64,000 bases of DNA from Dialister sp. (GTDB taxonomy: Bacteria; Bacillota; Negativicutes; Veillonellales; Dialisteraceae): NCBI RefSeq assembly GCF_036343215.1, contig NZ_JAZASU010000004.1:11595-75594 (forward strand), given 5' to 3'. Within the stretch, counting starts at the first letter, position 1, and each line of letters begins with the position of its first letter. The notes beneath the pieces are model-generated. The model searched no databases. It was not told the DNA's origin and saw nothing but the letters and a program-made list of their open reading frames with translations. This document shows positions 12,325-63,435 of this stretch, in pieces. Both the position numbers and the translations under genes were made by a program.

Positions 12325-12460
12325 ATCAGTTCATAGTGATCAGTTCTCAGTGAAGGTGGCCCGCCTCAAATCAGAAGCGGGCCAATTTTTATATGAAATT
12401 TTATTTTTTGTAATGCAGCTATACCACATGAGCAGCCATACAACTGATAACTGCTAACTT
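12325..12460. repeat. REP-like element with heptamer tails
   Basis: TCAGT-type heptamers then GTGAAGGTGGCCCGC...GCGGGCC; AACTGAT/AACTGCT heptamers on the right. Confidence 0.6.
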
Positions 12461-12518
12461 TTAAAAATGGTATAATGTACTCAAACTTATCCTTTCGTTT
12501 TTTAAAGAGGTCACAACT

Positions 12519-13313
12519 ATGAAACTACGAATCGGACTGATCCAGATGCAGGTGGAAATGGGAAACCGGGCGGCCAATTTCGCCCATGCGAAGGAACTTC
12601 TTGAAAAGGCCATGGAAAAAAAGCCGGATATCCTTGTGCTGCCGGAAACCTGGAATACGGGATTCTTCCCGAAAGACCGGCTTTTAGAACTTTCTGATGA
12701 AGAGGGAAAGGAAACAAAAGCCCTCCTTTCTTCCCTTTCCGGGAAATATGGAGTCAATATTGTCGGTGGGACGACGGCCGTTCGAATCGGAAAAGATGTA
12801 TACAACAGAAGTTTTGTATTTGACCGGAAGGGAGACCTTGTTTCCTCTTTCGATAAAATGCATGGTTTCTCCCTTTCCGGAGAACCGGACTACTTCCGGA
12901 TGGGAGACCATCTGGCCCACTTTGAGCTGGACGGCATCCCCTGCTCCATGGCCGTGTGCTACGATATCCGTTTTCCCGAACTCATCCGCCGGGAAGCTCT
13001 CATGGGCGTAGATCTTTTCTTCGTGCCCGCAGCCTGGCCGAAAATCCGGAATGCCCACTGGGTGGGGCTCAACCGGGCCAGGGCCATTGAAAATCAGTTT
13101 TACCTTGCCGCCGTCAACGAAGGCGGTAAATCGGGAGGCCTGGATTACGCGGGCGAATCTCTCCTTCTGGACCCCTGGGGAGAGGATATCTGCCATCTGG
13201 GCACGGAAGAGGAAATTGCTTTCGGCCGCATGGATACAGATGTCATTCAGGAAGTGCGGACAAAAATCAATGTATTCCGTGACCGCCGGCCGGAATGGGA
13301 TATCGTAGAATAG
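12519..13313 (+). CDS. Carbon-nitrogen hydrolase (nitrilase-like amidase)
   Basis: LPETW (Glu), FDKMH (Lys), VCYDIRFPE (Cys) triad and RARAIENQ. Confidence 0.92.
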   Translation: MKLRIGLIQMQVEMGNRAANFAHAKELLEKAMEKKPDILVLPETWNTGFFPKDRLLELSDEEGKETKALLSSLSGKYGVNIVGGTTAVRIGKDVYNRSFVFDRKGDLVSSFDKMHGFSLSGEPDYFRMGDHLAHFELDGIPCSMAVCYDIRFPELIRREALMGVDLFFVPAAWPKIRNAHWVGLNRARAIENQFYLAAVNEGGKSGGLDYAGESLLLDPWGEDICHLGTEEEIAFGRMDTDVIQEVRTKINVFRDRRPEWDIVE

Positions 13314-13338
13314 CTGTTATTTTCAAATAATGCAATAC

Positions 13339-13380
13339 AAAAAGAGCCGTGAAAATGATTTCATTTCCACAGCTCTTTTT
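13339..13380. terminator. Bidirectional terminator
   Basis: AAAAAGAGC...GCTCTTTTT between convergent genes. Confidence 0.7.
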
Positions 13381-13387
13381 ATTTCCA

Positions 13388-13891
13388 TCAGAAGTGATAA
13401 TTGAGCCCGATACCGATACCGCCTTCGTTATCGATATCATCCCTGTCATAATAGGTGTAATTCACATCCAGATCAAAGGACGTGGGAACGATATCCAGCT
13501 GAAGGCCTGCCTTGTACTGTCTTTCTTCCTCGGAAACGAGGAGGCCTGCGTACGCATCGAGGGGTCCCAAGACTTTTGCCCTTCCTTCCACCAGGCCGAA
13601 TACTTTCGCATCCCGGTCATAGTAATTTCTCGAACCGGCGCCGACATAGATATTTCCGATTTTATACTTCGCATACACATCGGTTTCATCGCCCCGGTGG
13701 TTCCAGTGACGATATTCCGCGCCGATGGCCAGTTTCGGAATCGGTTTGATTTCCAGATGGCCGCCATGAATGCCGTCAGCTGCCGTATTGTAACTGTAGC
13801 CTGCATCGATATCCATAATCCCGCCAATGGCAAATGCGCTTCCCGCACCCGAGAGTGCCAGGACTGCCGCTAAAACTAAAATCTTCTTCAT
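13388..13891 (-). CDS. Small outer-membrane beta-barrel protein
   Basis: Signal peptide, alternating amphipathic strands, C-terminal aromatic (GLNYHF). Confidence 0.7.
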   Translation of the reverse strand: MKKILVLAAVLALSGAGSAFAIGGIMDIDAGYSYNTAADGIHGGHLEIKPIPKLAIGAEYRHWNHRGDETDVYAKYKIGNIYVGAGSRNYYDRDAKVFGLVEGRAKVLGPLDAYAGLLVSEEERQYKAGLQLDIVPTSFDLDVNYTYYDRDDIDNEGGIGIGLNYHF

Positions 13892-14019
13892 AAGGACTCC
13901 TCCTTTCTGTAATTCTCTCTTGATTATTATATACCCGATTTCAGGAAAACGGATAGAAAAATTATAAAATTTCTATAAATAACGGTTAGAGAAGTTTGAC
14001 ACATATCGTGATTCGTTGT

Positions 14020-14152
14020 TCATTCTCCGTTGTTCGTGGTCCGTGGTCCGTAGTCCGTGAAGGATATAGCTATTTTGCGAACCAATCTTATATGGTGTCC
14101 GCTTCATGAATGGATGCGGCCTCCTTCACTGACCACTTATCACTAACCACGG
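14020..14152. repeat. REP-like element with GTGAAGG...CCTTCAC ends and heptamer tails
   Basis: (CGTGGTC)n tail, GTGAAGGATAT at 14057, CCTTCAC at 14123-14129, CACTGAC/CACTTAT/CACTAAC tail. Confidence 0.75.
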
Positions 14153-14348
14153 TTTTATTCGTTCTTCGTAAAGATGCGTTAAAGAGGCAGGGCAGAATTA
14201 TGGATTCTTCACAGGTGCATTATTAATTTTTAAGAGGGACTACAGTTATGGGAAAACAAAGGTACTTTTTCTTATCAGCATAATCGATCAGGTATTTCCG
14301 AAGGCAGAAATTGAGCACGAATGGGTAGAAGGAGTAAGTAAATGAAAT

Positions 14349-14804
14349 TTATTTCTTATATTTTCCCATTGCTTTTAACAGCTTCGGATCTTCCCAGGAA
14401 CGATAAACAGGATTATTCATCAATGAAATTTCCCCGGAACGTTCCAACACGCTTATCGCAAAATCATCCACAATTTCAAGATCCCGACCTTTACAGGTAC
14501 TTATATCAACTTTAGCAAAAATATATCCCAAAAAGTCATACGGATTTGGAATAAATTGATCCGTACCACAATAATAGATAAACAACTGACAAAAATTAAT
14601 TACATCTTCCTTTAATGTACACTTTTTTCTTAAAAACTCATTCCAGGTTTCAAAAATATCAGCCCAGGCATAACCTTCTATAACTTTTTCGGCACAATCA
14701 AGATGATCCGTATGATCTTCAGAATCAAAATTTTCGTCATTAAAATCATTATTAAACAAATAATCCGTATATTTTTCCAGTTCAGCTTCCTTTTCCTTAT
14801 TCAT
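14349..14804 (-). CDS. Acidic hypothetical protein, putative immunity protein
   Basis: 151 aa, D/E-rich N-terminus. ATG 14804 with RBS GGAG overlaps the upstream toxin stop (ATGAATAA). Function is inferred from position. Confidence 0.6.
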   Translation of the reverse strand: MNKEKEAELEKYTDYLFNNDFNDENFDSEDHTDHLDCAEKVIEGYAWADIFETWNEFLRKKCTLKEDVINFCQLFIYYCGTDQFIPNPYDFLGYIFAKVDISTCKGRDLEIVDDFAISVLERSGEISLMNNPVYRSWEDPKLLKAMGKYKK

Positions 14805-15291
14805 TTTCATTTCTCCGTCTCTTTTTGAACAGAATTTGCGGTAATTTGCCAAATGCCTCATCAGCCACAGCCATAGATTGGGAATTTGGTTTATAATGTC
14901 CGCTTCGATTATCATATGAGTATATTTTACCCCCGTGAATAGATAATATTCCAGCCATTTTTACAACAGGATCTTTCCCTCCAATCAAAGTAGGATGGGG
15001 TGTAGGTAATCCATTTTCACCATTTCCATTTCGTTTCCCTACAATGATATTTCCATTTTTATCAATTACATAAGTCAAATGTTGCTCATTAAAATTTTTA
15101 GAGACAATGTAATTTCCCTTGATCATCTCGTTTAGATTTCTTGCTGTAGGATTCTTATCATAATGACCATCGTGAAATGTTTTATTTCTAACATCAAAGT
15201 CATGCATATGTTTTTCTACATGATACTCAGCGGCAAATGGTTGTGAAGAGCCGCTTGTTCCGCTGTAAGCTCCGCTGCTACCGCTTCCCAT
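14797..15291 (-). CDS. Predicted toxin, Ntox43-like nuclease-type domain with Gly/Ser-rich N-terminus
   Basis: Start MGSGSSGAYSGTSGSS at 15291 (RBS GGAGGG); YVID, HPTLIGG, AG and DNRSGHYKP motifs. Needs HMM confirmation. Confidence 0.68.
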   Translation of the reverse strand: MGSGSSGAYSGTSGSSQPFAAEYHVEKHMHDFDVRNKTFHDGHYDKNPTARNLNEMIKGNYIVSKNFNEQHLTYVIDKNGNIIVGKRNGNGENGLPTPHPTLIGGKDPVVKMAGILSIHGGKIYSYDNRSGHYKPNSQSMAVADEAFGKLPQILFKKRRRNENE

Positions 15292-15970
15292 ATTTCCCTC
15301 CATCCATATGTCTGATTTTGATCCAGTTATCATAATGATAAAACCGGGTGACATTACGATAATCTCCAAAAATACTATCCGGCATCGTTCCATAAACAAG
15401 AACAATTTCTGGTTCAAGAGTCTTTAGCATCTCTTCCAACCCACATTTAAAATTGTATTTTTCCAATTTGCTTTTAAGTTGTCCATATGTTCCAATAGAA
15501 ACTATGCTATGTTTCACTATTCCCAGAAATGCCACTTGTTCCTTCAAGATACATTTGGTATAAGTTCTTTCATCTCCCCATCGAACTTGCGGAATGACAT
15601 AACAACCTTTTTTCTGTAAATAGCTTCCAATGATACGGTTTCGATAAATATTAATCAGGTTGTTCATAAACGGTGCATCATAATACAAAGAGCAATCCGG
15701 AGTAATCACCGCAGTAAATTTCAACAATTCATCGACATAGTTCTGTGGATTCCTAATCAAATCAGCAAACATGATATCTTCTTCATAAAAGCCAATCGCC
15801 ACTCTTTCCCTGCCAGCCTTTTTTCTTTCAGAAAAAGGAACAATAATGTCCGGAATGATAAAATGACTTGGCCTTTCAACAATTGGAAATTCCAAAATTC
15901 CATCAAATCTGGACCCTGCAAACAGTTCCGGATTACATCCATCATCAAGACTGAGTTTACGTCTGCGCAT
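15278..15970 (-). CDS. DUF4417 domain protein
   Basis: IGFYEEDIMF, TPDCSLYYDAP, NIYRNR, VIPQVRWG, VSIGTYG and EPEIVLVYG pattern matches the family as I recall it. Confidence 0.83.
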   Translation of the reverse strand: MRRRKLSLDDGCNPELFAGSRFDGILEFPIVERPSHFIIPDIIVPFSERKKAGRERVAIGFYEEDIMFADLIRNPQNYVDELLKFTAVITPDCSLYYDAPFMNNLINIYRNRIIGSYLQKKGCYVIPQVRWGDERTYTKCILKEQVAFLGIVKHSIVSIGTYGQLKSKLEKYNFKCGLEEMLKTLEPEIVLVYGTMPDSIFGDYRNVTRFYHYDNWIKIRHMDGGKYGKR

Positions 15971-15996
15971 ATTTTCACTTCCTTTGATAAATAAAA

Positions 15997-16074
15997 ATAA
16001 GCCGCAATGACATGAATCACAGTTACAGCAGGAATTGCTGTTTTTCTGCGGTCTAGCACGTCAATGCGGCTTAT
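15997..16074 (-). promoter_or_regulatory. Long RNA hairpin between the Cys-rich peptide and DUF4417 (possible attenuator)
   Basis: ATAAGCCGCATTGACGTG pairs with CATGTCATTGCGGCTTAT (17 of 18), inner CGCAG/CTGTG and ACAGCA/TGCTGT stems, followed by TTTT and then the DUF4417 RBS. Confidence 0.7.
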
Positions 16075-16112
16075 CTGCAAGTAAGACATAAGAAGTCTTT
16101 TTATTCCATATA

Positions 16113-16265
16113 TTATTGTTTACCTATAGTGATTACGATGTCCTTACCTCCTTTTGCAACACATTTCTTTAGCACCTGAATCGGCCACTTTAAAGAATTT
16201 TTAGTTTTAATGATGAAACAATGCTTTCCGATAGGACATTTGCGGTCACAATAAAATATTTCCAT
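16113..16265 (-). CDS. 50-aa Cys-rich basic peptide (possible Zn-binding regulator), absent from the ORF track
   Basis: Strong RBS AAGGAGG; MEIFYCDRKCPIGKHCFIIKTKNSLKWPIQVLKKCVAKGGKDIVITIGKQ. Confidence 0.65.
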   Translation of the reverse strand: MEIFYCDRKCPIGKHCFIIKTKNSLKWPIQVLKKCVAKGGKDIVITIGKQ

Positions 16266-16337
16266 CTTCTTTTCCTCCTTTCCCTATCTCTATCTCTAAT
16301 TTTAAAGGGCGAAAATCATGTGGAATAGTTATCTATA

Positions 16338-16393
16338 CTGTTAACAGATAATCAGCAAGTAGATTTGCAAAAATGATTGAAAGTGGTTATACT
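16338..16393. promoter_or_regulatory. Divergent control region: palindrome CTGTTAACAG and + strand promoter
   Basis: Perfect 10-bp palindrome at 16338-16347; TTGCAA-17-TATACT at 16365-16393. Confidence 0.55.
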
Positions 16394-16479
16394 CGAAGTA
16401 AAGTAAATTCAACAATTCGTAAATGAGTTAATCATATCGTAAACATAATATTCACGGTATCGTATTCAGGAGATAATGC

Positions 16480-17007
16480 ATGGATCAAGATGACTTAACG
16501 CAGGAAATTGGGAAACATATAAAACATTACAGGAATGAACAGAAAATATCTCAACATGATTTAGCTGAAAGATCCTGTATTGCTGCGACAACTTTAAGCA
16601 GCTATGAAAACAATAAAAGAACGCCCAGTCTATATACGTTAGCTAAAATTGCCAACGCTCTTAATGTGACAATTGACGAACTTTATTACGGACGATATGA
16701 CTATACCTCCACGCAAAGGCTGACCCCTGGCGAAGAGATTGCCAATGCAGTGTTTGTATTATGGAAAAACGATTCATTAAATCTCGAAAGATATAATGAA
16801 CCTGCATCCAGGCTTTCTTTTAATTCTTATGACCATGAAATTCATCATCTGATCGGAGCCTTAAATGAAATAAGGGCTAGAAAAGATACGTATAATAATC
16901 CGGAAATGTTTTTGGAAGAACAATTGAGATCAGCGGCTACCGTTATGGAAAGGCTCTACGAACAGCGTGAAAGGATATTGAAATCGTCTTATAACCTTTT
17001 AAAATAA
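16480..17007 (+). CDS. XRE-family HTH transcriptional regulator with C-terminal extension
   Basis: IGKHIKHYRNEQKISQHDLAERSCIAATTLSSYENNKRTPSLYTLAKIANALNV. Confidence 0.87.
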   Translation: MDQDDLTQEIGKHIKHYRNEQKISQHDLAERSCIAATTLSSYENNKRTPSLYTLAKIANALNVTIDELYYGRYDYTSTQRLTPGEEIANAVFVLWKNDSLNLERYNEPASRLSFNSYDHEIHHLIGALNEIRARKDTYNNPEMFLEEQLRSAATVMERLYEQRERILKSSYNLLK

Positions 17008-17094
17008 TTTTCTAATTTTAGCTGCTTTTTAACTTCACTACAATTCCGGTAATTGAAATCAAACATCTATTAACTTTCACCGGAACAAAATACA

Positions 17095-17133
17095 AAATAA
17101 AACCCTGTCCGCAAAGCAGACAGGGTTTTATTT
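17095..17133. terminator. Bidirectional terminator
   Basis: AAATAAAACCCTGTC-loop-GACAGGGTTTTATTT. Confidence 0.8.
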
Positions 17134-17153
17134 ATGTAAAGTTCCAGAATGTA

Positions 17154-18974
17154 TTACTGCTGGCTCTTCTTCACGTTGGCATTCTTATAGCGTGCCTGAC
17201 GGGAGAGGACCATTTTTCTCATGCGGAGGCTCTTCGGGGTCACTTCTACCAGTTCATCATCGTTGATCCATTCGAGGGCGGATTCAAGGGTGAATTTGCG
17301 GCAGGGCGGCAGTTTGATGGCATCATCGGAGCCGGCTGCACGGGTATTGGTGAGGTGTTTCTTCTTGCAGGGATTGACGTCCATATCCTGGTCACGGGCA
17401 TTTTCACCCACGATCATGCCTTCATAGACTTCTACGCCCGGTTCGAGGAACAGATCGCCGCGGTCAAGAACGGAGTTCAGACCGTAAGCAGTCGTTGTGC
17501 CTGCTTCGAAAGCGACCAGGGAGCCTCTGGTTCTTTCAGGAATATCTCCCTTGTAAGGAGCATAGCCCTGGAATACGTGGTACATAATGCCCGTTCCGCG
17601 GGTGGTGGTGAGGAGTTCATTTCTGAAACCGATGAGTCCGCGGGCAGGAATGGAGAATTCCATCTTCATGTAGCCTGCCAGTTCATCCATGGAAATCATT
17701 TCCGCTCTTCTCGGGCCAAGGCCTTCCATGACGGCGCCCATGAATTCCTGGGGAACTTCGATGGTGAGGCGTTCCAGCGGTTCACATTTCTTTCCATCGA
17801 TGGTCTTGTAAATAACCTGGGGCTTGGAGACTTCCAGTTCGAAGCCTTCACGGCGCATGGTTTCGATGAGGACGGAGAGATGAAGTTCGCCGCGGCCGGA
17901 AACCTTGAATGCGTCGGAAGTATCGGTATCTTCTACGCGGAGGGCCACGTTGGTTTCGATTTCTTTATAGAGACGGGCACGGATATGACGGGAAGTGACG
18001 AAATCCCCTTCCTTGCCGGCAAAGGGGCTCTTGTTGACATGGAATACCATGGACAGGGTCGGTTCGTCGATATGAATGGTGGGGAGAGCTTCGGGATTGG
18101 TGGCATCTGCTACGGTTTCTCCGATATTGATATCTTTGAAACCTGCCATAGCGCAGATATCGCCGGCTTTGACTTCAGCTGCCGGGGTACGTTTCATTCC
18201 CTGCCAGGAGAAGAGGGAGCCGATATGGTCGGTGCGGGATTTTTCTCCATCCGTGATGGAAACGGTCATGCCCTGCTTTGCGGTACCGCGGGTGACACGG
18301 CCAATGGCCACTTTGCCCAGATAATCATCGGCTTCCAGGGTGGTCGCCATGATCTGAAGGCTGCCGTCCGGATCCACATCCGGGCAGGGGCAGTATTTCA
18401 GGATGGTATCAAAGAGGGGTCCCAGGTCTTTGCCTTCGTCTTCCATATGGAGTTTGGCAATGCCGTTTCTGGCGGAAGCATAGATCAGCGGGAAATCGAG
18501 CTGGTCGTCATCTGCTTCCAATTCGATGAAGAGGTCCAGGATTTCGCCTTCCACGTCGGAAATACGCTGGTCCGGGCGGTCGATTTTATTGATGACGACG
18601 ATTGGCTTCAGCTTATGTTCCAGAGCCTTGCGGAGTACATACTTGGTCTGGGGCATGGGTCCTTCATGAGCATCTACCAAAAGCAGAACACCGTCAACCA
18701 TATTGAGGATACGTTCTACTTCGCCGCCGAAATCCGCATGCCCTGGGGTATCAACGATGTTGATCTTTACACCATTGTGCATGACAGAGGTATTCTTGGC
18801 CAGAATGGTAATGCCTCGTTCTCTTTCCAGCGGGTTGGAGTCCATGACACGTTCTTCCACTTTCTGGTTTTCCCTGAATACATGGCTCTGTTTCAACATA
18901 GCGTCCACAAGAGTCGTCTTGCCATGGTCGACGTGAGCGATAATGGCAATATTGCGGATATCTTCTCTTTTCAT
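17154..18974 (-). CDS. typA: Translational GTPase TypA/BipA
   Basis: [41 protein letters not shown] and GRGELHL motifs; start reassigned to 18974. Confidence 0.97.
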
Positions 18975-19273
18975 TTCTTTCTTTTTCTCCCTCGGGTATA
19001 CAGCAAAAAAATAATGCATCTTTGTCATTATACCATAGAAATACAAAGATGTTTATGGCAATTGTCAATACGGTTTATTATACCATGATTCCCAGGGGAT
19101 TGCCAATCATTAATACAGGAAATTATCTACTGAAACAACTTTTATTTCAGGACCTTCAGCACCCCTTTTCAAAAGCTGTAACTTACTTCATTTCCTCTCC
19201 ACTTTCCATGTTATAATAAAGAATACCCTATGTATGTAAAATTTAAATTTATTTACTTATAGAGGAAATAAAA

Positions 19274-19891
19274 ATGCCTGAATCCATATATGGAATCCAT
19301 AAAGATGTACTGCCAAAAGTGCTTGACAGACTGATTTCCAGCATCAAAGCTTTCAGTGACGGTCATAAGGAAAAAACCGGTGAAGCTGCCTATGAACACC
19401 TCATTTACAGGATCAAATCAGAAGACAGCATGCGGGAAAAATGCCGCCGAAAGGGGCTTCCCGAAACGGCTCATTCCGCCCTGGTGGATATTCATGATGC
19501 CATTGGCATCCGTATTGTCTGCTGCTTTCTCAATGACATTTATGAAAATATCGATTTCATCCGGTCCATTCCGGGTGTGGAAGTGGTCAAAGGCAAGGAT
19601 TATATCCGGAATGCCAAACCCAATGGCTATCGCAGCTACCACATGATCATTACCGTGGAGGCTCCTTTCGAAGACCCGGAAGGAAATAATCCGGGAAAAT
19701 TCTATGTGGAAATCCAGCTCAGAACCATTGCCATGGACTCCTGGGCCAGCCTGGAACACCAGATGAAGTACAAGAAAAATATCCGAAATCCGGAAATGAT
19801 TACGAGAGAGCTCAAGCGCTGCGCCGATGAACTCGCCTCCTGCGACCTTTCCATGCAGACGATCAGGAATCTGATCAGGCAGGAACACTGA
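19274..19891 (+). CDS. Small alarmone synthetase (RelA/SpoT domain, GTP pyrophosphokinase family)
   Basis: RIKSEDS, HDAIGIRIV, KDYI...KPNGYRSYH, EIQLRTIAMDSWASLEH motifs. Confidence 0.9.
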   Translation: MPESIYGIHKDVLPKVLDRLISSIKAFSDGHKEKTGEAAYEHLIYRIKSEDSMREKCRRKGLPETAHSALVDIHDAIGIRIVCCFLNDIYENIDFIRSIPGVEVVKGKDYIRNAKPNGYRSYHMIITVEAPFEDPEGNNPGKFYVEIQLRTIAMDSWASLEHQMKYKKNIRNPEMITRELKRCADELASCDLSMQTIRNLIRQEH

Positions 19892-19911
19892 CATATCAGT
19901 CCTGTTTCGAT

Positions 19912-20098
19912 TAACGTGATCCGTGAATCGTGTTCCGTGGCCCGTGAAGGATATGGTTTTGCTTTGCAAAACCAATTTTATATCATGGTCCTTCGGACCA
20001 TGACCTTTGGCTCTCATGAAACCAACATATAAAAAGGCGCCCCTATAATTTCAAGGCGCCACCTTCACGGACCACGGAACACGGACCACGGTCCACGA
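19912..20098. repeat. Complete REP-like element inside the SAS-response regulator operon
   Basis: CGTG-heptamer tail, GTGAAGGATAT at 19944, GGCGCC...GGCGCCACCTTCAC to 20068, (GGACCAC)n tail. Confidence 0.78.
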
Positions 20099-20142
20099 TT
20101 AAGAAAACAGGCACAATCTATTGATCACATAAAGGAGAAAAC

Positions 20143-22100: not shown

Positions 22101-22120
22101 TCGGCCCTTTTGTGCTGAAT

Positions 22121-22305
22121 CGTTGTTCGTTGTTCGTTGTTCGTTCTTCGTTGTTCGTTCTTCGTTGTTCGTTCTTCGTGATGGTGGGCGCCTTAAACAA
22201 TACAAGGCGCCCTTTTATATTTTAAAAAATTTGCAGCCGAAGGCGGCCACCTTCCCGAGTTCCCCGACACTCCCGAAATGACTCCCGAGGCCCCGATTCA
22301 AAAGT
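22121..22305. repeat. REP-like element with (CGTTGTT/CGTTCTT)x8 tail and 9-mer tail
   Basis: Eight heptamers at 22121-22176, GTGATGGTGGGCGCC hairpin, GGCGGCCACCTTCCC then CCCGA-containing 9-mers. Confidence 0.8.
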
Positions 22306-25128: not shown

Positions 25129-25172
25129 AAAAAAGCCTTTCAGACGCTGTCAATTCTGAAAGGCTTTTTTTG
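25129..25172. terminator. Bidirectional terminator
   Basis: AAAAAAGCCTTTCAGA-loop-TCTGAAAGGCTTTTTT. Confidence 0.8.
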
Positions 25173-25302
25173 ATGAGGAAATATGAAATTGCAGCCTTCT
25201 CATCCCCTTCCCCACCTGCCCCAATCCCCGATTCCTGATTCTCAATCCCTCTTCCGCCAATATAAAAAGTGCCCTTATGCAGGCACTTTTACGAGCAGCG
25301 GT

Positions 25303-26193: not shown

Positions 26194-26546
26194 GGCCTTT
26201 CCTCCCTTCGTACTTTCTCTTAATAAATTCATTATACCTTTTTTCGAAGCTGTTGGCCAATGGATAAAATAGCCGTCAGCTGTCAGCACTTCTGTTTAGT
26301 GATAAGTGAAGGTGGTGCGCATCAGGTATGGAAGCGCCCCAAACGAAAAAATAAAACCCATCAGATTCAACCTGAACCTGATGGGTTTTATTTTTGAAAT
26401 AATGAGGAAAATGATCTAATCGTCACTCAAAAGCCAAAGGCTCAGGCCCGAAGGGCCTTTTCATAAAATTGGTATCCGAAAGAAACTAACCCTTCACGAA
26501 TCACGATTACGATAAAAGCCACTGAGCCTTTCCTGTCGCAAGTGAA

Positions 26547-46996: not shown

Positions 46997-47400
46997 GGCT
47001 TTTATTTCCCTGTCAATCCCCCATGGGGGATATGAACGAAAATACGGGGCTGTATAATCATTACACCATACAGGGAACTGCCGGAAATTGAAAAGTGATC
47101 AGTGAAGGGGACCCGCATCTGATGAAATGGCATTCCATTTTTAACCATAGCTATCATCGAAAAGGGTTAAACTTTATATAAAAAAGCCGCCCCGGTGTAA
47201 AGATTCCCCAAAGCTGCGGACCGGCCACTATTTCCTGAAAAGTTTTGAAATCATGATTTCTATTTTTGTACACCCTCCAGATCTGCTATCAGGAAAGTAA
47301 TTTCATACTTTTTCAAAAAATAGTTGAGTCCTTCATGGAAAATACGGTATAATGTATGAAATAAAATCATTTACTTTTATAAAGAAAGGAGTCTTCCCTC

Positions 47401-47869: not shown

Positions 47870-48120
47870 CCGATGAATCGTGACCCCTGGACCGTGATTC
47901 GTGATCCGTTAAGGATATGGGGCTGCGCGAACCAATCTGATTGATAACGGCTGCTCACAACAAGAAAAAGACGCCCCTCACCGGACGTCTTTTTTTATGC
48001 TCTTTTATCATTTTGGAAATACGATAAAACCCCTGTCCATATAAAGTCCAATCAGAATTCATGCCGCATCAGCGGCACACCTTCACGGACCACGGGCCAC
48101 GATTCACGGATCACGACCAG
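47870..48120. repeat. REP-like element pair with heptamer tails
   Basis: CGTGA tail then TTAAGGATAT...GCGAACCAATCT (as at 14057); ATGCCGC-ATCA-GCGGCACACCTTCAC then CACGGAC/CACGATT tail. Confidence 0.75.
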
Positions 48121-54505: not shown

Positions 54506-54535
54506 TGAAATTTCACCTCCTTGAAATGATCTCGA

Positions 54536-55918: not shown

Positions 55919-55928
55919 ATGGTCACCT

Positions 55929-56252
55929 TCATTCCGACAAAACCTGTAACAATGTTTCAGCTTCATTCTGCTTTTCAGCAGGAATGAGATTCAAAAGCTC
56001 CCTTGCCGCCGCCTCTTTCTTCTCCCTGAAAGAAACAAGATGAAGGGCTTTCTCATAAGAGAGGAGCTGCTCCTCGCCATGGCGCATGGCATCATGCACC
56101 GCCTGACGGGAAATATGGAAATGCTGGGCGATTTCCGCCAGCGTCAGATTTTCATTATAGTATAAGTCCAGGCAGTCTCTCTGCCTTTCCGTCAGAAGTG
56201 CCCCGTAACAGTCCAGGAGCTCTCCCTTCCAAACGATATTTTCTATAGACAT
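55929..56252 (-). CDS. ylxM: YlxM DNA-binding protein
   Basis: LLDCYGALLTERQ...ISRQAVHD, upstream of ffh. Confidence 0.92.
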   Translation of the reverse strand: MSIENIVWKGELLDCYGALLTERQRDCLDLYYNENLTLAEIAQHFHISRQAVHDAMRHGEEQLLSYEKALHLVSFREKKEAAARELLNLIPAEKQNEAETLLQVLSE

Positions 56253-56273
56253 AGTATCACCACAACGTGTGAT

Positions 56274-56302
56274 ATTATAGCAGGTGCGGAAAAGGTTGTC
56301 AA
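56274..56302 (-). promoter_or_regulatory. Consensus promoter of the ylxM-ffh operon
   Basis: TTGACA-17-TATAAT. Confidence 0.85.
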
Positions 56303-56498
56303 GCTCTTTTGCTTTACAGGATTTCGTTTCAAAAAGCTTGCTTTGGAAATAGAAACTGCAGGATGAAATGACTTTTATATCGGGGCTTTCGGGAGTAGCA
56401 GGAATGTCGGGAAGGCAGTGCCTTACGGCGCAATATAGGAAGGAAATAAAAAATTCCTGCCGATCCTTTGGCGGGAATTTTTATTTTCTATTGGGAAA

Positions 56499-57160
56499 TC
56501 ATAACTTTTCCCCTGCCAGTCCCGGCTGACTGATTCTCCCGGTCTTTTCTTCTTTCTTTTCCGATTTCAAGGTAAAGGAGAAAATGGCACCCGGAACAGA
56601 GACTGCCCAGAGAATCTGGAGGGCGGGAACAAGTCCGAAAGTGTCAGCAGCGCGGCCGATAAGAGGAGTTACCAGTCCACCGAAAGTAGTGGAAAGGCCT
56701 AAAGTAATGCCTGAATCAAAGGCCACATTTTTACCGAGGTATTTCTGCCCCAGGACTACGCTGGCGCTGAAGGGGGCAAAGAGGGCAAATGATGCGGGGA
56801 GGAGAAGAATCATGGCAAGGAGGGTATTTTCCGTATGGATGAGAAGGAACATGGCGGGAATCATGGAAATAAAAGCGATGCGGAGCATACGGACGCAGCC
56901 CAGACGGTCGGCAAGAAGACCACCGAAATAAGTAATGATACAGCCCAGGGAGAAAAGGATAGTGAGGATGAAGCTTCCTTCTGAAGCATCCGCATGAAGG
57001 ACCTGAATCCAGAAAACGGGCAGGAATGTTTTGCATACGGTAAATCCGATGGACCTGGCAAAAATGAGGACTGTGAGCTTTCCGAAGGATTTCCAGTCGT
57101 TCCGGGCTTTTCCGCGCCGAAGGCGGCCCTTTTCTTTTTTATGCCTGCCATATCGGAAAG
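56499..57160 (-). pseudogene. C-terminal half of an Fsr-like MFS transporter
   Basis: Six TM segments, GGLLADRLG and GQKYLGKNV motifs; N-terminal half and RBS are missing. Confidence 0.75.
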
Positions 57161-57179
57161 GATTTCCGGGAGGAAGCGG

Positions 57180-58011
57180 AGAAATCCTTCCCCCTACCTG
57201 GTCCGCGAAGTTTCCCACGGAAAAAGCGCTTTCTATGACCCCGGATTTCACATCATGCACTGGCATGAAGAATTCCAGTTCATTTACGTTTCCTCCGGAA
57301 GCCTCACCGTGCATACCCTTTCGGACACGCTGAAGCTTTCAGAAGGAGAAGCTTTATACCTGGGGCCCGAAGTGATTCACTGCATCGAGGCACCGGTGGA
57401 TGCCCACTATTACAATTTTCCCTCCTCTGCGAAAGTGCTCCGATTCTATCCGGGATGCCCCGCCAATGAGGACCTGTCCGCCCTTTTCGCAGAAAATTTC
57501 ATTTCCTTTGCCCCTCTCTCCCCAGTGCTTCCCTGGGCCCGGGAATCCCTGGACCTGCTGAAAGACCTCGCCCGTTTTGAAAAGGACAAACCTCCCTTCT
57601 ATGCCTGGGAAGTCATCCTCCGCCTTTTCCGGCTGCTCCTCTCTGTGCGAAAACATCATAACCCGCAGGAAAGGCCCGCCCGCGACGCCAATGCGGAAAA
57701 AGCAAAAATCATCCTGCAGTTTCATCGCAGACCATTATGACGAAGATATTTCCCTGGAAGATATGGCAGAAAGCACCCATTTGAGCAAATCCGGCTGCCT
57801 TCGGGCTTTCCGCCTTGCCATGCACACCACGCCCTATCAGTACCTCCTGGAATACCGTTTGCAACAGGCCGCAGAAAGACTCCTTTCCACCGATCTTCCC
57901 ATAGGACAGATCGCCCTGGACACGGGCTTCCGTCAGGTCAGCCTCTTTGGGAAATATTTCAAAGAAAAAACAGGCTTCACCCCGAAAGAATACCGGGCCG
58001 CCCGGTCCTGA
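57180..58011 (+). pseudogene. AraC-family regulator, 5'-truncated and frameshifted
   Basis: Cupin HWHEEFQF in one frame and HTH (ISLEDMAE...FKEKTGFTPKEYR) in another; extra T in TTT at 57720-57722. Confidence 0.8.
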
Positions 58012-58144
58012 AAGAATTTCCCCGAACCACGGACCAACAATTCTCCCTATTGATAAATATAAATCTTTTCAATAAAGGCGATATAAATATGTATTTTATA
58101 ATATAAGCGGTGTTTGTTTTCGAATATTTCCAAAGGAGAAACTT

Positions 58145-59635
58145 ATGAAAAAATCCATTCTTGCTTTGACTCTGGCCGCCATGATTTCGGGCGGCACCGT
58201 ATTTGCTGCCGATGCGCCTCGGGACAATTTCTACTGGCTGGGCCAGATCAATAAGGCTTCGGATATCATCAATACGTCCGAAGGCCTTCTGACACCGGAA
58301 GAAGGAAGAAATATCGCCCAGGGCATTCGGAAAGTCCTCGCCGACGGGTCCCGTCCCGGCGCACCCCGGCCGGCCAATGTAGTGGCCTTCGAACCCTACC
58401 TCATCAAGGCCGCAGGCCCCCAGGTGACGAAAATCCATGCAGGCCGCTCTTCCCAGGATATGCTGACCACTGTCGGCATCATGGAGCAGCGGGAACACCT
58501 GCTGGACATGGCAAAAGAACTGAACAAAGTGCAGGCCGACCTCATCCGTCTGGCTGAGGAAAATAAGGAAACCGTCATTCCGAACTATACGAATGGCGTC
58601 CAGGCCCAGCCGAACAGCCTTGCCCATTACCTCATCGCCTATGCCAATGCCTATAACCGGGATATGCAGCGGACCCGCGAATATTTTGCCCGCCTGAACC
58701 GCTCCCCCATGGGCTCCACCGTTTTAAACGGCACAGGCTGGCCCCTCAATCGTGACCGCATGGCCGCCTATCTGGGATTTGACGGTCTCGCCTACAATAC
58801 CTACGACGCAGGCCAGGTCTTCCCCCAGGAAGCGCCCATCGAAACGGGAGGCATCACGAACTGCATTGCCATCCATACCACTTCTTTCATCGAAGAAATC
58901 ATGCAGCAGTACGCCCAGCCCCGTCCCTGGATTCTTTTGAAAGAGGGCGGTGGAAATACCTATGTTTCCTCCGCCATGCCCCAGAAGCGGAACCCGGGCA
59001 TCCTGAATTCCTGCCGCGGCGATGCTTCCACCCTTCTCGGCATGAGCATGGAAGCCGCTTTCCGCTCCCACAATATCCCCGCCGGCATGGCTGACGGAAG
59101 GCTGAACGGAAGACGCGACCTCATGCCCCAGGGGACAAAAGTCCTCTCCGGCCTGGACAGAATCCTCAATAATCTCGTCATCAAACCGGAACGGTCTCTG
59201 GAAGAGCTGGACCTCGACTGGACCTGCTCCCAGGAAATTGCCGATGAACTCATGAAAAATCACGGCATCCCCTTCCGCACAGGCCATCACTTTGCCAGCG
59301 AAATCGTGACCTATGCAAGAGCCAATAATATCACTCCGAAAGATTTCACCTACGATAAAGCCCAGATGGTCTATGAGAAACTCGCCAAAGACGATCCCGT
59401 CCTGCCAAAGGCATTCCCCATGACCGAAGATGAATGGAACCATGCCAAAGACCCCGTAGCCATCGTCCACAATAGAAAGGTCAAAGGCGGCCCCCAGCCC
59501 GCTGAACTGGAAAAGATGATTTCCATGGCAAAGAATGACCTCGCTGACAACGAAAACTGGGTAAAGCAGCAGGAAGAAAAACTATCGAATGCGGAAAATA
59601 AACTGAATGCGGACTTTCAGGAAATGCTGAAATAG
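58145..59635 (+). CDS. Exported argininosuccinate lyase-like protein (fumarase/aspartase superfamily)
   Basis: Signal peptide, IHAGRSSQD, SSAMPQKRNP signature and GIPFRTGH. Confidence 0.85.
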   Translation: MKKSILALTLAAMISGGTVFAADAPRDNFYWLGQINKASDIINTSEGLLTPEEGRNIAQGIRKVLADGSRPGAPRPANVVAFEPYLIKAAGPQVTKIHAGRSSQDMLTTVGIMEQREHLLDMAKELNKVQADLIRLAEENKETVIPNYTNGVQAQPNSLAHYLIAYANAYNRDMQRTREYFARLNRSPMGSTVLNGTGWPLNRDRMAAYLGFDGLAYNTYDAGQVFPQEAPIETGGITNCIAIHTTSFIEEIMQQYAQPRPWILLKEGGGNTYVSSAMPQKRNPGILNSCRGDASTLLGMSMEAAFRSHNIPAGMADGRLNGRRDLMPQGTKVLSGLDRILNNLVIKPERSLEELDLDWTCSQEIADELMKNHGIPFRTGHHFASEIVTYARANNITPKDFTYDKAQMVYEKLAKDDPVLPKAFPMTEDEWNHAKDPVAIVHNRKVKGGPQPAELEKMISMAKNDLADNENWVKQQEEKLSNAENKLNADFQEMLK

Positions 59636-59638
59636 TTT

Positions 59639-59935
59639 CTGTCAGGCTCATTCTGATGGCTTGAGTCATTATCGGTTTTCGTGGGTTAGCCTCACCGCGA
59701 CTTGAACCTGTATACCCAGGCTTGCGCGATCGTGGTTCGTGATTCGTGATTCGGGTTGTCAGGCTCATGCCTATGATTTGAGTCACTAACGGATCGTGAG
59801 TCAGCCTCACCGCGGCTTGAACCTGTATATCCAGACTCACAAGATCGTGGTTCGTGATTCGTGAAGGTAGAGCAAAATAATTTCAATAAAAAGCGGCACC
59901 TTTTGCTGCTGCACCGCACCTTCACTTATCACTTT
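59639..59935. repeat. Two ~110-bp direct repeats with heptamer tails followed by a REP-like element
   Basis: GTCAGGCTCAT...AGCCTCACCGCGRCTTGAACCTGTATAYCCAG...ATCGTGGTTCGTGATTCGTGA x2 (59639-59748, 59756-59866); GTGAAGG at 59861, CACCTTCAC at 59917-59925. Confidence 0.8.
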
Positions 59936-59945
59936 TCCCAATAAC

Positions 59946-59984
59946 AAAAAGCTGTACAGTCTCATTTTGACTGTACAGCTTTTT
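59946..59984. terminator. Bidirectional terminator
   Basis: AAAAAGCTGTACAGTC-loop-GACTGTACAGCTTTTT. Confidence 0.8.
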
Positions 59985-60024
59985 GCTGACTGCTAACGGC
60001 TAATGGCTAACGGCTAACAGCTAA

Positions 60025-62466
60025 TCATTCTTCCCCATTCTCATCATCTTCTGCGGAAAGCACGTCGATGGAGGCGATTCTGTCTCCTTCTTCGAGTCTC
60101 TGGAGGATGACGCCCTGGCCGCCTTTGGATTTCTTGGAGAGAATCTGACTGGCTTTTGTTTTGATGGTAATACCCTGTTCGGATACGCCTACCAGTTCAT
60201 CTTCATCATCAGCAGCAACCAAAGCTACGACTTCAAAACCCTTCTTGAAGTTCCGGACACCGGTTCCGTTTCTTCCCTGGAGTCTGTATACACTGGCTTC
60301 ATTTCTCTTTGCATTGCCATCAGCGGAAATGGTAAAGATATCTTTTTCGTCGGCAATGACGGCACCGACTACTTCATCCCTTTCTCCCAGACGGATACCA
60401 TGGACGCCGGCGGCTCCCCGGCCCATAGGTCTGATTTCTTCGGTGGAGAAGCGGATGGCCATGCCAAGTTTCGTACCGAGGATGATATCTTCATCACCAC
60501 GAATCTGAAGAACCTGGGCCAGTTCATCTCCCTCATTGAGACGAAGAGCGATGAGACCGTTTTTATTGATATTTTTATATTCTGAAATTTCCGTCTTCTT
60601 CACATAGCCCAGTTTGGTAACCATAAGGAGGAATTTCGTACCTTCGCCGGCTGCGTCGATATCGAGAAGTTCTGTTACCCGATCTCCTGCCATGATTCCC
60701 GGGATGTAATTGATAATGGCGCTTCCCCTTGCGGTGCGGGAAGATTTAGGCAGATCCACGGCCGTCTTCATGTAGACTTTGCCCTTATTCGTGAAGAAGA
60801 GGATCCGGTTATGGGTGGATGTATTCAAGAGTTTCCATACATAGTCTCCATCCTTCATCTTCATGCCCGAAACTCCGCGGCCGCCTTTCCGCTGTACCCG
60901 GATATCGGAGGAATCCATGCGCTTGATATAATTCTGTTTTGTCATGGTAATGGTCATGGGTTCATCGGGAACAAGATCAGTAATATCGAAATCATCCTGG
61001 GCCTCGGCAATTTCAGTTCTTCTTTTATCGCCAAAGTTGGATTTTTCATCCTGCAGTTCTTCCTTTACTACGCCCATGATCTTGTCTCTGCTGGAAAGGA
61101 GATCTTCCAGGTAGGCAATCGTTTCTTTCACGTCTTTATAGTCTGCTTCCAATTTATCTCTTTCAAGTCCGGTGAGCCTTCTGAGGCGCATATCGAGGAT
61201 GGCGAGGGACTGCTTTTCGGAGAGGTCGAATTTGGACATCAATGCATCTTTCGCGATGGTATCGGTGCGGGATTCTCGGATCGTATGAATCACTTCATCG
61301 ATATGGTCGAGAGCAATGAGGAGACCCTCCAGGATATGAGCCTTGGCTCTTGCCTTGTCCAGCTCGAACCGGCTTCTTCTGGTAATGACTTCTTCCTGAT
61401 GTTTCAGGTAGTAGTACAGAATCTGTTTCAGATTGAGGATTCTTGGGTGGCCGTCTACCAGGGCGAGCATGATGGCGCCAAAATTCACCTGCATCTGGGT
61501 ATGCTTGAAAAGATTATTCAGCATGATTTCCGGACTTACGTCAGCCCGGAGTTCGATGGCGATCCGCATGCCCGTGCGGTCTGATTCATCACGGAGCATA
61601 GTGATGCCGTCCAGCACTTTCTGACGCTGGAGATCTGCGATGGAGGAAATCAGGCGTGCCTTATTCACCTGGTATGGAATTTCCGTCACCACGATGCGAT
61701 GTTTGCCGTGGGGCATTTCCTCGATTTCCGTCTTTGCCCGGACCGTGATGGATCCACGGCCAGTACGATAGGTATCCTCTATGCCCCGGTGACCGAGAAT
61801 AATGCCTGCCGTCGGGAAATCAGGACCTTTGATGTATTTCATCAGTTCATCAATGGAAATTTCAGGATTATCAATCATGGCGCAGCAGCCATCGACCACC
61901 TCACCTAAGTTGTGAGGAGGAATGTTGGTAGCCATACCTACGGCAATGCCATAGGAACCATTGACGAGAAGATTCGGAATGCGGGACGGGAGGACCACCG
62001 GTTCCTGGAGAGAACCATCGTAGTTCGGCATGAAATCCACCGTATTTTTATCAATATCCCGGAGCATTTCCAGAGTAATCTTTGCCATGCGCATTTCTGT
62101 ATAACGCATAGCGGCCGGAGAATCACCATCGACAGAACCGAAATTTCCGTGTCCGTCTACCAGCATGTAACGGGTGGAGAAATCCTGGGCCATGCGGACA
62201 GCCGATTCATAGACTGCCGTATCGCCATGGGGATGAAATTTACCGAGAACGTCACCGACGATTCTGGCTGATTTTTTATAAGGCTTGTTCGGCAGCATGC
62301 CCGCTTCATTCATGGCATAGAGAATACGGCGGTGAACCGGTTTCAGGCCATCCCTCACATCAGGAAGTGCCCGGGTAACAATGACACTCATGGCATAGTC
62401 GATGTAGGAATTTTTCATCTGCCCCTCCAGAGGGGTATTGACGATTTTACCTTCTTTCCAATCCAT
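60025..62466 (-). CDS. gyrA: DNA gyrase subunit A
   Basis: HPHGD, AAMRYTE catalytic Tyr and GyrA-box QRKGGRG. Confidence 0.97.
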
Positions 62467-62751
62467 AAGGACTCCTTTATTCATAAAAATAAGACCCGAA
62501 AGCCCCGGGTCCTATAGGAACTCTGAAAACATTATAGCATAAAACGGCTTAAAAAGCCATTTAAGGCTTGTTTTGACTGTTTTTTGTATTTCTTACACAA
62601 AGTGAAAATATCGTTTGACATAAAATAAAGCCATTTAAATAGATTTCAAAAATTTTCTGCGTAAAAATATTTTTACAGACATCTTTTATTCTTTGTCCGT
62701 TTTTTATATAATAAGTCTGTGTGCTCTCAAAGTCTCGAAGGATGTGTAATT

Positions 62752-63258
62752 ATGAAGAAACTGGCACTTTTACTGATTGCCATCATTATACTTATAGCCG
62801 GCGGATTCTTTATCTTCGTTCATTTCATCAGCGGCGGACCCTGGCAGGGTACCTGGTGGGGCGTGCAGGATGCAGGGATCAACTGGTCCGGTGACAATAT
62901 CAAAAATCTGGAAACTGTGACATTTACAAAAAATGAAGATGGTACCATCGATGTGGACCATAAAGTCCAGCAGGGAAGCCGTGAGGTCAATGGATCCCTG
63001 GCAGGAACAGGAGTCGTTGACGGGGGCCGTCTCGTAATCACCCCCCAAAAAGGCGGCAAGAATCTGGTTCTTTCCTACAATACCGTTTCCAAAACCATGG
63101 ATACCCCCTTTACCAATGCCGATGGTACCACGGTCACCCTCCAGCCTTTAACGGAAAACAATAATGATGAAATGGAAGAAATCCGAAGTGAAATCGTCCA
63201 GGTCTCCCAGAAACCGGAGAATAAAATCGATACCACGCTGTCAACAGCAAAGAGCTGA
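62752..63258 (+). CDS. Hypothetical membrane-anchored protein
   Basis: N-terminal hydrophobic anchor followed by a beta-rich domain. Confidence 0.72.
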   Translation: MKKLALLLIAIIILIAGGFFIFVHFISGGPWQGTWWGVQDAGINWSGDNIKNLETVTFTKNEDGTIDVDHKVQQGSREVNGSLAGTGVVDGGRLVITPQKGGKNLVLSYNTVSKTMDTPFTNADGTTVTLQPLTENNNDEMEEIRSEIVQVSQKPENKIDTTLSTAKS

Positions 63259-63435
63259 TGGGATTTTTGCAGTTAGCGGTCAGTTGTTAACCGTTAGTAA
63301 AAGCCACAGGTAGAAAGTTATCAGTTTGTAGTAAAGGTGGACCCGCATCAGAAATTGATGGCGGGTCCTTTTTATGTGGTATTATTTCCCATCAAAAAAG
63401 TCCGCCTCCCCTATGAAAGCAGACCACATACTTTT

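Follow-up and report, generated by a model that had tools for sequence, protein, structure and literature searches.

The 64,000-nucleotide stretch of Dialister sp. analysed here (the window; NCBI RefSeq contig NZ_JAZASU010000004.1, positions 11,595 to 75,594) contains at least 20 intergenic ends at which a short tandem array of heptamers or nonamers runs through a GTGAAGG-type foot into a GC-rich hairpin. We put at about even the chance that these repeats are paired or solo arms of a family of palindromic cassettes, which resemble the intervening sequences (IVS) of 23S rRNA genes, are built around a PF05635 gene and have multiplied, mostly without that gene, in one subclade of Dialister. The repeats have a regular anatomy, a strict polarity, a fixed unit number and, when paired, matched arms; they are restricted to one lineage, turn over fast through 7-nt indels and junctions of unequal recombination, and are associated with PF05635 genes. 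Arrays like the cyanobacterial short tandemly repeated repetitive (STRR) sequences and IVS-type cassettes are already known kinds of element, and what is new here is the lineage (Negativicutes) and the composite variant.

Abundance and anatomy of the composite units

The genome from which the window comes (G000) is a fragmented 2.44-Mb draft of 239 contigs with 48% G+C and 93% completeness, so that the numbers of repeats and PF05635 genes counted in it are minimum values, and its gene map, produced by a codon-usage caller made for this analysis, is crude and covers 71% of the genome. The comparison covered the 38 available species of its genus, G000 among them, together with some 360 other genomes from 102 genera of the class. 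The nearest relative, G018, deposited as 'Dialister sp. UBA7295', is 94% identical to G000 and G009 is 77% identical, while G018 and G021 together span about 88-94%.

The window contains 20 exact copies of GTGAAGG, compared with 7.6 +/- 2.9 in dinucleotide-preserving shuffles, none of 100 shuffles reaching 20. Twelve of these copies are intergenic (10313, 12350, 14057, 14123, 19944, 20062, 26306, 26491, 47102, 48080, 59861 and 59919), and the remaining eight fall within genes and look like chance matches. Variant feet are found at 22178 (GTGATGG), 22255 (CCTTCCC), 47905 (GTTAAGG) and 63331 (GTAAAGG), with further CCTTCCC feet (that is, GGGAAGG) at about 9957, 10076, 10213 and 10419. Period-7 arrays detected by Tandem Repeats Finder (TRF) abut the feet at 10317-10341, 12321-12351, 14026-14059, 20066-20097, 22120-22179, 48084-48119 and 59845-59864. 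The first-pass annotation of the window had counted at least 15 intergenic foot-plus-heptamer ends, a figure that our analysis raises, and all the tail units it had listed (GGACCAC, GAACAAC, GGCTAAC, GATTCAC, TTATCAC and GCACCCC) are present. An Rfam scan of the window returned two tRNAs only, with no family matching the repeats.

Across the non-genic DNA of G000 the motif G[TG]GAAGG reaches 54 per 100 kb, three times the density of the reversed motif (17), and it shows no excess in genic DNA. TRF reported 881 rows of period 7 and 383 of period 9, as against 71 of period 6 and 110 of period 8. The period-7 rows span 143 canonical units and include 658 intergenic arrays with at least 2.8 copies; the top unit is AGTTATC with 175 arrays, which on the other strand reads AACTGAT, a rotation of TAACTGA, and the classes AATCCCC, AATCCGC and AAATCCG are represented as well.

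Read on the G/T-rich strand, the composite unit consists of about four degenerate heptamers or nonamers, the foot, a GC hairpin and a T-rich tail. The heptamers follow the profile M-G-K-K-N-T-Y, in which position 2 is G in 97% and position 6 is T in 78%, and the nonamers read TCGGGRNTR. The foot (MGKGAAGG, usually followed by TG) is phased with the array and hence its final variant unit; this corrects the earlier description, in that the foot is not a separate motif. The 'AC core' that had been noticed in the tails is the complement of the G at unit position 2 and of the G/T at position 3. The hairpin has a GC stem of 7-10 bp and a loop of 3-4 nt or 8-13 nt, and the tail is a T-run, often ending in TATATGGGG (TATAT(G)GGG), after which two recurrent modules, TTTGCACAGGCGGGG-like and GCCTTCGGCTCTCA-like, can come. 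The stem sequence is free among copies, the common parts being the foot, some loops (TGAT, TTC) and the tail. Since hairpin and tail types are common to different array classes, the modules combine freely. A detector that needs array, foot and hairpin together found about 340 units in G000, its main classes being CGT (105), AGT (96), CGG (52) and nonamer CGG (46).

The composite units show the sequence pattern of intrinsic terminators, a GC-rich stem-loop followed by a T-run, with 66-80% T at positions 2-5 after the hairpin (341 units), and a terminator consensus scan matched the hairpins at 10296-10310, 10196-10209, 19954-19974 and 22233-22250. Each arm would act as an intrinsic terminator for sense-strand transcripts. 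Many units are expected to end transcripts in this way, yet terminator duty alone is not enough to explain the family. The units located in the window are the following.

8534-8601, minus strand: composite unit of the nonamer class, with a TCGGGNNNN array, foot CGGGAAGG, GC hairpin and T-rich tail (detector; TRF period 9 at 8570-8610)
9925-9992, minus strand: composite unit of the CGGGGTG class; hairpin about 9940-9953, foot CCTTCCC (plus strand) about 9957-9963, array 9961-9992 (sequence, TRF, detector)
10041-10125, minus strand: composite unit of the nonamer class; hairpin about 10056-10073, foot about 10076-10082, NNNNCCCGA units to about 10123 (sequence; TRF period 9 at 10078-10123)
10183-10236, minus strand: short composite unit; hairpin 10196-10209, foot CCTTCCC about 10213-10219, two to three heptamers (sequence; terminator-like match on the minus strand, 10209 to 10196)
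10288-10348, minus strand: composite unit of the CGTGGTC class; hairpin 10296-10310 followed by ATTTTCTTAT (minus strand), foot 10313-10319, array 10317-10348 (motif, TRF, terminator scan, detector)
10390-10464, minus strand: composite unit of the nonamer class, which closes a series of five units in the same orientation within 9925-10464 (TRF, sequence, detector)
12321-12392, plus strand: composite unit of the AGTTATC (TAACTGA) class, 39 nt past the stop at 12282; foot 12350-12356, hairpin, AATTTTTATAT (sequence, detector)
14006-14153, unstranded: inverted pair; left array 14006-14058, foot 14057-14063 and decayed ATATGG..CCAAT hairpin; right hairpin, foot 14123-14129 and NNNNCAC units to about 14153 (motif, TRF, sequence)
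19915-20097, unstranded: inverted pair between co-directional plus-strand genes; left arm 19915-19982 (foot 19944), right arm 20028-20097 (foot 20062), outer stem of more than 30 bp (terminator scan, detector, fold)
22120-22300, unstranded: inverted pair with unlike arms; left (TCGTTGT)8.6, foot GTGATGG, hairpin, TTTTATATTTT; right hairpin 22233-22250, foot CCTTCCC, nonamers to about 22300 (TRF, terminator scan, detector)
25164-25241, minus strand: composite unit of a GGGATTG-type class (detector, sequence)
26296-26512, unstranded: outer feet 26306 (plus) and 26491 (minus) with short arrays, enclosing an ordinary bidirectional terminator at 26348-26394 (motif, terminator scan)
47090-47150, plus strand: solo foot at 47102, hairpin, minimal array (motif, sequence)
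47880-48119, unstranded: wide inverted pair; left CGTGATC-type array and variant foot GTTAAGG about 47905; right hairpin, foot 48080-48086, array 48084-48119 (motif, TRF, detector)
59640-59945, unstranded: two 115-nt tandem units ending in CGTGATT heptamers, then inverted feet 59861 (plus) and 59919 (minus), with TTATCAC-type units beyond (motif, TRF)
63300-63375, plus strand: composite unit of the AGTTATC class; variant foot GTAAAGG about 63331, long-loop hairpin, TTTTTATG (sequence)

At 9506-9863, a 61-nt tandem repeat present 4.8 times (a 123-nt period is also readable) runs into about 10 copies of TAACGGC, and the corresponding region of G018 is shorter by 226 nt. A module 'gtcaggct...gagtcagcctcac' resembling the 115-nt unit of 59640-59864 also turns up at other places, one of them being the G018 insert at ig585.

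Polarity, unit number and pairing

The arrangement of the units is strictly polar. A GC hairpin lies within about 22 nt of the 3' end in 368 of the 658 intergenic heptamer arrays of G000, and a T-tail follows it in 224 of these 368, while only 42 arrays have the hairpin on the 5' side. Unit number is equally constrained: exactly four in-phase heptamers precede the foot in 143 of 274 units, three to five do so in 90%, and six or more in only five units.

Where units of G000 are neighbours, their arrays point outward in 34 pairs and inward in two, which bears out the frequent inverted pairs with mirror-oriented tails of the earlier description. The spacing of these pairs is variable (73-347 nt). 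The array class is the same in both arms of 24 of the 34 pairs, compared with 7.4 +/- 2.4 expected, and none of 5000 simulations reached 24. In such a pair, base pairing between the two arrays and between the two feet would produce a long outer stem that encloses the inner hairpins. The predicted RNA fold of the pair at 19910-20100 takes this form, with arrays and feet as the outer stem enclosing three inner hairpins, at -94.8 kcal/mol against -46.5 +/- 4.5 kcal/mol for shuffled sequences (z = -10.8).

On the crude gene map the foot sits at a median of 90 nt past the stop codon of a co-oriented upstream gene, and composite units were found in divergent intergenic regions too. The view of the pairs as mere terminators of convergent genes was rejected, as only 6 of the 28 gene-flanked pairs are convergent and the arm classes match far above chance. 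A replication-strand cause of the polarity was rejected as well, the leading strand predicted from GC skew being followed by 71% of the units compared with 82% of the genes.

Association with PF05635 genes

The PF05635/TIGR02436 family, named '23S rRNA intervening-sequence protein', comprises Avd-like four-helix-bundle proteins. Four PF05635 genes were found in G000, all scoring above the cut-off of TIGR02436 ('four helix bundle protein'), and three of the four are bracketed by inverted arrays. The gene on contig C130 lies between GTTCCGA and TCGGAAC arms, that on C64 between AGTTATC and AACTGAT arms, and that on C52 between two CGTTCTT composite units that are both complete with foot, hairpin and tail. 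As background, inverted same-unit arrays are present on both sides of 2.8% of genes. The exact complementary match between the flanks extends over 18 nt at C130 and 19 nt at C52, and matches of at least 17 nt occur at only 0.6% of genes. Bracketing of PF05635 genes by inverted arrays was also revealed in G019, G048, G047, G013, G012, G018 and G021, the arms in G018 and G021 being full composite units, and arms on one side only were seen in G009 and G041. With a gene inside complementary arms and tandem heptamers of variable copy number in those arms, the loci bracketed on both sides have the make-up of IVS-like PF05635 cassettes. Full-length copies of the family would accordingly be those with a PF05635/TIGR02436 gene between the arms, most copies being gene-less pairs or solo arms. 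Given that a gene-carrying, autonomous-looking form exists, the earlier term 'non-autonomous' is reasonable for the gene-less copies.

The units of the arms are specific to the species or the paralogue. In the orthologous genes of G000 (C130) and G021 (C54), which are 76% identical, the units have changed on both arms together, reading GTTCCGA/TCGGAAC in the former and GTTGCCA/TGGCAAC in the latter. Arrays of (GAGAWTT)n were found only in genomes whose PF05635 gene has such arms (50 in G009, 31 in G047, 6 in G019, 2 in G048 and 0 in G000), and they are dispersed in G009 and G047 and confined to the vicinity of the gene in G019 and G048. In G000, G018 and G021, six array classes each match the arms of a different paralogue, as judged by eye. 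In terms of PF05635 genes and period-7 TRF rows per 100 kb, respectively, the genomes gave 0 and 7 (G045), 0 and 7 (G046), 1 and 2 (G019), 1 and 40 (G016), 4 and 36 (G000), 8 and 58 (G018), 4 and 40 (G021) and 4 and 20 (G009), the rate of 7 in G045 and G046 being no higher than at neighbouring periods. The link between PF05635 genes and array load is real but loose, in a small sample of related genomes.

The best solved relative of the C52 protein is XCC0516 of Xanthomonas campestris (PDB 2gsc, E = 2e-22), with five chains, and five chains are present in both PDB relatives. PF05635 proteins, like Avd, form pentamers in crystals. We raise the idea, rather unlikely to hold, that such pentamers read the tandem heptamers in a sequence-specific way, with one subunit on each unit and an arm made up of five units if the foot is counted with the four heptamers; every paralogue would have its own 'word', and this binding would drive the copying, exchange or retention of arms. 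Hints in favour of the idea are the peak of unit number at four plus the foot, the five-chain PDB relatives, the matches of words to paralogues and the confinement of words to genomes with a matching gene.

One PF05635 gene with about 260 nt on each side is 100% identical between G018 (C67, L216) and G021 (C81, L217). As these two species are otherwise about 88-94% identical to G000, this identity of gene and flanks suggests a recent exchange of the whole cassette between them. PF05635 genes also cluster in G018, with three within 5 kb on C92 (C92:1-7500, L220) and two within 2.5 kb on C73 (L219).

Distribution and turnover

A pattern of two phased units plus the foot was counted 261 times in G000, 365 times in G018, 215 times in G021, 67 times in G053 and 60 times in G012, and it did not exceed control level in the remaining 33 species of the genus or in the other genomes of the class that were scanned. 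Different units make up the heptamer arrays of other species in the genus.

Comparison of orthologous sites revealed fast turnover. At the site of the unit at 12321-12392, G018 has two copies and the more distant G009 a plain terminator, and within 13891-17154 a CGT-class unit is present in G000 and G021 and a nonamer-class unit in G018. The pair at 19915-20097 keeps its architecture in G021 with different units, the pair at 22120-22300 is identical in G018 and differs in its right arm in G021, and the solo foot at 47090-47150 is missing from the orthologous sites of both. The 115-nt units of 59640-59945 number three in G018 and two in G000 and G021. Beside the inverted pair at 14006-14153, an island of about 3 kb (about 14150-17100) with a DUF4417 operon is missing at the orthologous sites of G018, G021 and G009.

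Among 131 intergenic regions aligned between G000 and G018, gap sizes peak at 7 nt (23 cases), followed by 14 nt (8) and 21 nt (3), differences which slippage fits. The clean large differences are either array expansions (91 nt, or 13 units, twice) or tandem duplications and deletions, whose junctions fall inside arrays or repeated hairpin modules. The comparison of filled and empty sites that had been put forward as a check gave no clean insertion with a target duplication, the size differences being tandem duplications or deletions with junctions inside repeated modules. Arrays, feet and stems are 0.76-0.81 identical between the two genomes, compared with 0.845 for other intergenic DNA; purifying selection on the arrays was considered and none was seen, the elements being less conserved than other intergenic DNA. 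The proposal of a mobile dispersed family is upheld in its lineage specificity, its fast turnover and the different element types at sister sites, and not as regards a clean insertion with target duplication. Growth by slippage or templated addition, also proposed, agrees with the 7-, 14- and 21-nt differences as regards slippage, while a length fixed at 4 +/- 1 units is not open-ended growth.

A distinct element of about 300 nt, similar to a MITE (a miniature transposable element with inverted repeats), carries, between inverted ends (GGGGGTGTACAAA... and ...TTGTACAGCCCC), two inner AGTTATC arms as a pair. It occupies two sites in G018 that are both empty in G000 (ig8, in the L027 region that corresponds to the right arm of 26296-26512, and ig91), where it replaces the hairpin between foot and tail with no clear duplication visible, and in G000 it is found at C154:98, C15:7499, C83:7592 and C7:41745. 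The short composite units are without these terminal ends.

We suggest that copies of the cassette family may be spread and exchanged through recombination between repeats, possibly aided by the four-helix-bundle protein binding its own heptamers. By analogy with the 23S IVS, paired arms may form double-stranded RNA that is cut by RNase III.

Weighing of alternative explanations

Several findings weigh against the cassette reading. The partner hairpin stems of a pair are 0.45 identical, against 0.43 in random pairs; the units have a terminator-like orientation to an upstream gene in only 172 of 294 cases (58%), and many are solo; and no insertion with defined ends or target duplication was observed among the clean G000/G018 size differences. 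G019 has one PF05635 gene and no genome-wide excess of arrays and G016 one gene and a strong excess, only two genomes lacking PF05635 were sampled, and related genomes are non-independent points. Heptamer arms are absent from the C100 gene in G000 and from C92b, C92c and C33 in G018. We know of no nuclease or recombinase activity in PF05635 proteins, so that the gene may be carried along by the family instead of driving it.

The main rival, which we consider unlikely, is that of ordinary intrinsic terminators with microsatellites, in which replication or transcription stalls at GC hairpins and causes local 7-nt slippage, with neither mobility nor a gene link. The position of the arrays 5' of terminator-like hairpins, the indel peaks at 7, 14 and 21 nt between sister species, the absence of a co-distributed transposase and the fast change of the sequences without conservation are all what such a process would give. 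It does not account for a unit number held sharply at 4 +/- 1 instead of a broad range, for arrays that match between the arms of a pair, for the PF05635 association, or for the plain terminators and the different element class found at the same sites in the 77%-identity relatives and the 94%-identity sister species, respectively. The foot and the TATATGGGG tail are, moreover, conserved around unrelated stems, which argues that the copies share descent. Quite unlikely, in our view, is an RNA regulatory platform in which the phased heptamers bind a protein with a 7-nt footprint (cold-shock or HutP-like, NAG-N4) that tunes termination or 3'-end stability. The phase-locked G at position 2 and T at position 6, the fixed unit number and the location of the arrays 5' of the hairpin and about 90 nt past stop codons would suit it, the AGTTATC class reads CAG-N4-CAG, and G000 encodes a cold-shock protein and a full-length HutP-family protein (L207, G000:C1:19270-19650). 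HutP as the reader of the repeats was nevertheless rejected, since it is present in 36 of the 38 species of the genus with or without arrays and the CAG-N4 spacing is confined to the AGTTATC class; NAG is missing from most classes (CGTGGTC, CGGGGTG, nonamers), 42% of the units face away from any upstream gene with some in divergent regions, and the units are less conserved than neutral-looking intergenic DNA. Csp, S1 or CsrA have been put forward as binders of TAACTGA repeats (MacGregor 2015, PMC4679880), which is in favour of a protein reader of this kind.

Enzymatic partners were sought among the HUH transposases and reverse transcriptases whose co-distribution with the family had been proposed, and the proposal was not borne out. 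A PF01797 scan of the genus for Y1/HUH transposases gave one match in G000, the tnpA of an IS605 with tnpB, and none in G021 and G012; no RAYT-like (REP-associated tyrosine transposase) solo Y1 gene flanked by repeats was found. This only IS605 of G000 (tnpA of 145 aa and tnpB of 373 aa; L005, G000:C42:8356-11718, at about 1250-1440) lies directly after the AT-rich tail of a composite unit, and such tails are a possible target of the IS605. The idea that multi-copy genes of G000 could be unrecognised transposases was rejected, all ten examined being housekeeping genes. A family of repetitive extragenic palindromic (REP) or REPIN type moved by a RAYT, or palindromic elements derived from IS200/IS605, is very improbable: intergenic hairpins with a conserved 5' flank, inverted doublets and the position of the IS605 speak for it, and against it stand the missing RAYT-like gene, the lack of Y1_Tnp in G021 (215 pattern matches) and G012, the unconserved stems, the doublet spacing of 73-347 nt and the absence of a GTAG-type motif. 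Templated repeat addition by a reverse transcriptase, telomerase-like or similar to retrons and diversity-generating retroelements (DGR), with the foot as primer or template, is extremely improbable and in its RVT_1 form largely refuted. Array units do resemble partial copies of the foot (MGKG start), and the PF05635 family is related to Avd, the accessory protein of DGR (PMC10053308), with weak NF033474 matches. The arrays, however, are short and fixed in length, and no RVT_1 reverse transcriptase was found in G000, G018, G021 and G053, whereas array-poor relatives have several.

Comparison with known systems and wider occurrence

The closest parallel to the cassette reading is provided by the 23S rRNA IVS of Coxiella burnetii, in which an S23p (PF05635) ORF is preceded by tandem heptamers (GACAGAT) in 2-3 copies depending on the strain, with an RNase III site at the first heptamer repeat; its authors regard it as a selfish element whose RNA part outweighs the protein (PMC4990558). 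Like the IVS of Coxiella and Leptospira, the Dialister cassettes place a small four-helix-bundle gene within a long stem of complementary flanks, with tandem heptamers of varying copy number at the flank (5' in the IVS). Unlike them, they lie between protein genes, are mostly gene-less and number hundreds of copies in several unit classes, each arm having a terminator-like hairpin of its own together with the fixed GTGAAGG junction and a T-rich tail.

The analogy with STRR heptamers that had been drawn holds, in view of the excess of intergenic period-7 arrays, the several unit families and the sharing of TAACTGA and GGGATTG. TAACTGA direct repeats have been reported from Beggiatoaceae, Cyanobacteria and Bacteroidetes, where their function is unknown (PMC4679880). 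They share with the Dialister repeats the intergenic location, several families per genome, a patchy distribution and 2-6 copies per set, and the commonest Dialister unit, AGTTATC, is TAACTGA on the other strand. In contrast, the Beggiatoa copies lie just before start codons, such repeats have not been reported from Bacillota or Negativicutes, and foot, hairpin and pairing rule are not described in that paper, which has no GAAGG or CCTTC string (PMC4679880). The arrays of Xanthomonas, (GGGANTN)n, number about 186 per genome, are 89-93% intergenic, lie near the upstream ORF and include 70-75 convergent pairs (Rehm et al. 2015, PMC4692102). The conserved unit positions of these and the Nostoc GGGAATC-type arrays are the same as in Dialister and the GGGATTG class is in common, but the Xanthomonas arrays were read as G-quadruplex formers and have a single unit family, no fixed hairpin junction and no proposed gene link (PMC4692102). 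The REP/REPIN analogy made for the window fails on sequence, the flanks and not the stems being conserved. REP sequences, bacterial interspersed mosaic elements (BIME) and REPIN-RAYT systems (PMC3116915) do resemble the Dialister family as intergenic palindromes and module mosaics with inverted doublets, a gene-carrying 'master' besides gene-less copies and a bias to gene 3' ends; REPs, however, lack heptamer arms, and Dialister has neither a RAYT nor conserved stems, the gene associated with its repeats not being a known DNA-cleaving enzyme.

Outside the genus, the junction AGTTATC-AGTTNNC-AGTGAAGG occurs in Parabeggiatoa, Nostoc, Calothrix, Rivularia, Chroococcidiopsis, Acidobacteria, Planctomycetota and a deltaproteobacterium (one genome per species), usually followed by a reverse-complement array. 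In five distant genomes, 11 of 75 AGTTNNCAGTNNNGG matches have GAA at NNN where about one is expected, five of the 11 being the matches by which the genomes were selected. Conservation of the GTGAAGG junction across phyla, with exact matches in about ten distant taxa and a mild enrichment, is regarded as a lead only and is not relied on here. Two contigs of Pyrinomonadaceae from metagenome assemblies (L067 and L070) have long hairpins in nearly every intergenic region, with arms of different heptamer arrays that are sometimes nested (GAAGGCA outside GATTTTC), and these are a plain form of the heptamer-arm architecture of Dialister. A degenerate scan of viral contigs gave chance matches only; a specific scan gave one 5.7-kb contig (IMGVR_UViG_3300011992_000043; L204-L206) with at least five AGTTATC-type composite junctions, which probably stems from a related bacterium and not from a phage.

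Significance

Tandem 7-nt repeats have been known from Cyanobacteria since 1990 and were later described in Xanthomonas and Beggiatoaceae, and to our knowledge no explanation of their origin and function has been offered so far. With PF05635, these long-unexplained repeats gain a candidate protein partner. The Dialister family adds a lineage that is new at the phylum level, Negativicutes of the gut, and an unusually regular anatomy with fixed unit number, fixed junction, strict polarity and matched arms. If true, reading of the heptamers by PF05635 pentamers would be the protein-repeat recognition behind the excess of 7-nt repeats in Cyanobacteria, Xanthomonas, Beggiatoaceae, Acidobacteria and Dialister. 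On the practical side, the repeats break short-read assemblies, and contigs of G018 end in them. The contrast within the genus, whose members have hundreds of copies, other unit 'words' or none, together with the gene-carrying copies, makes these ideas testable in a small and culturable genus.

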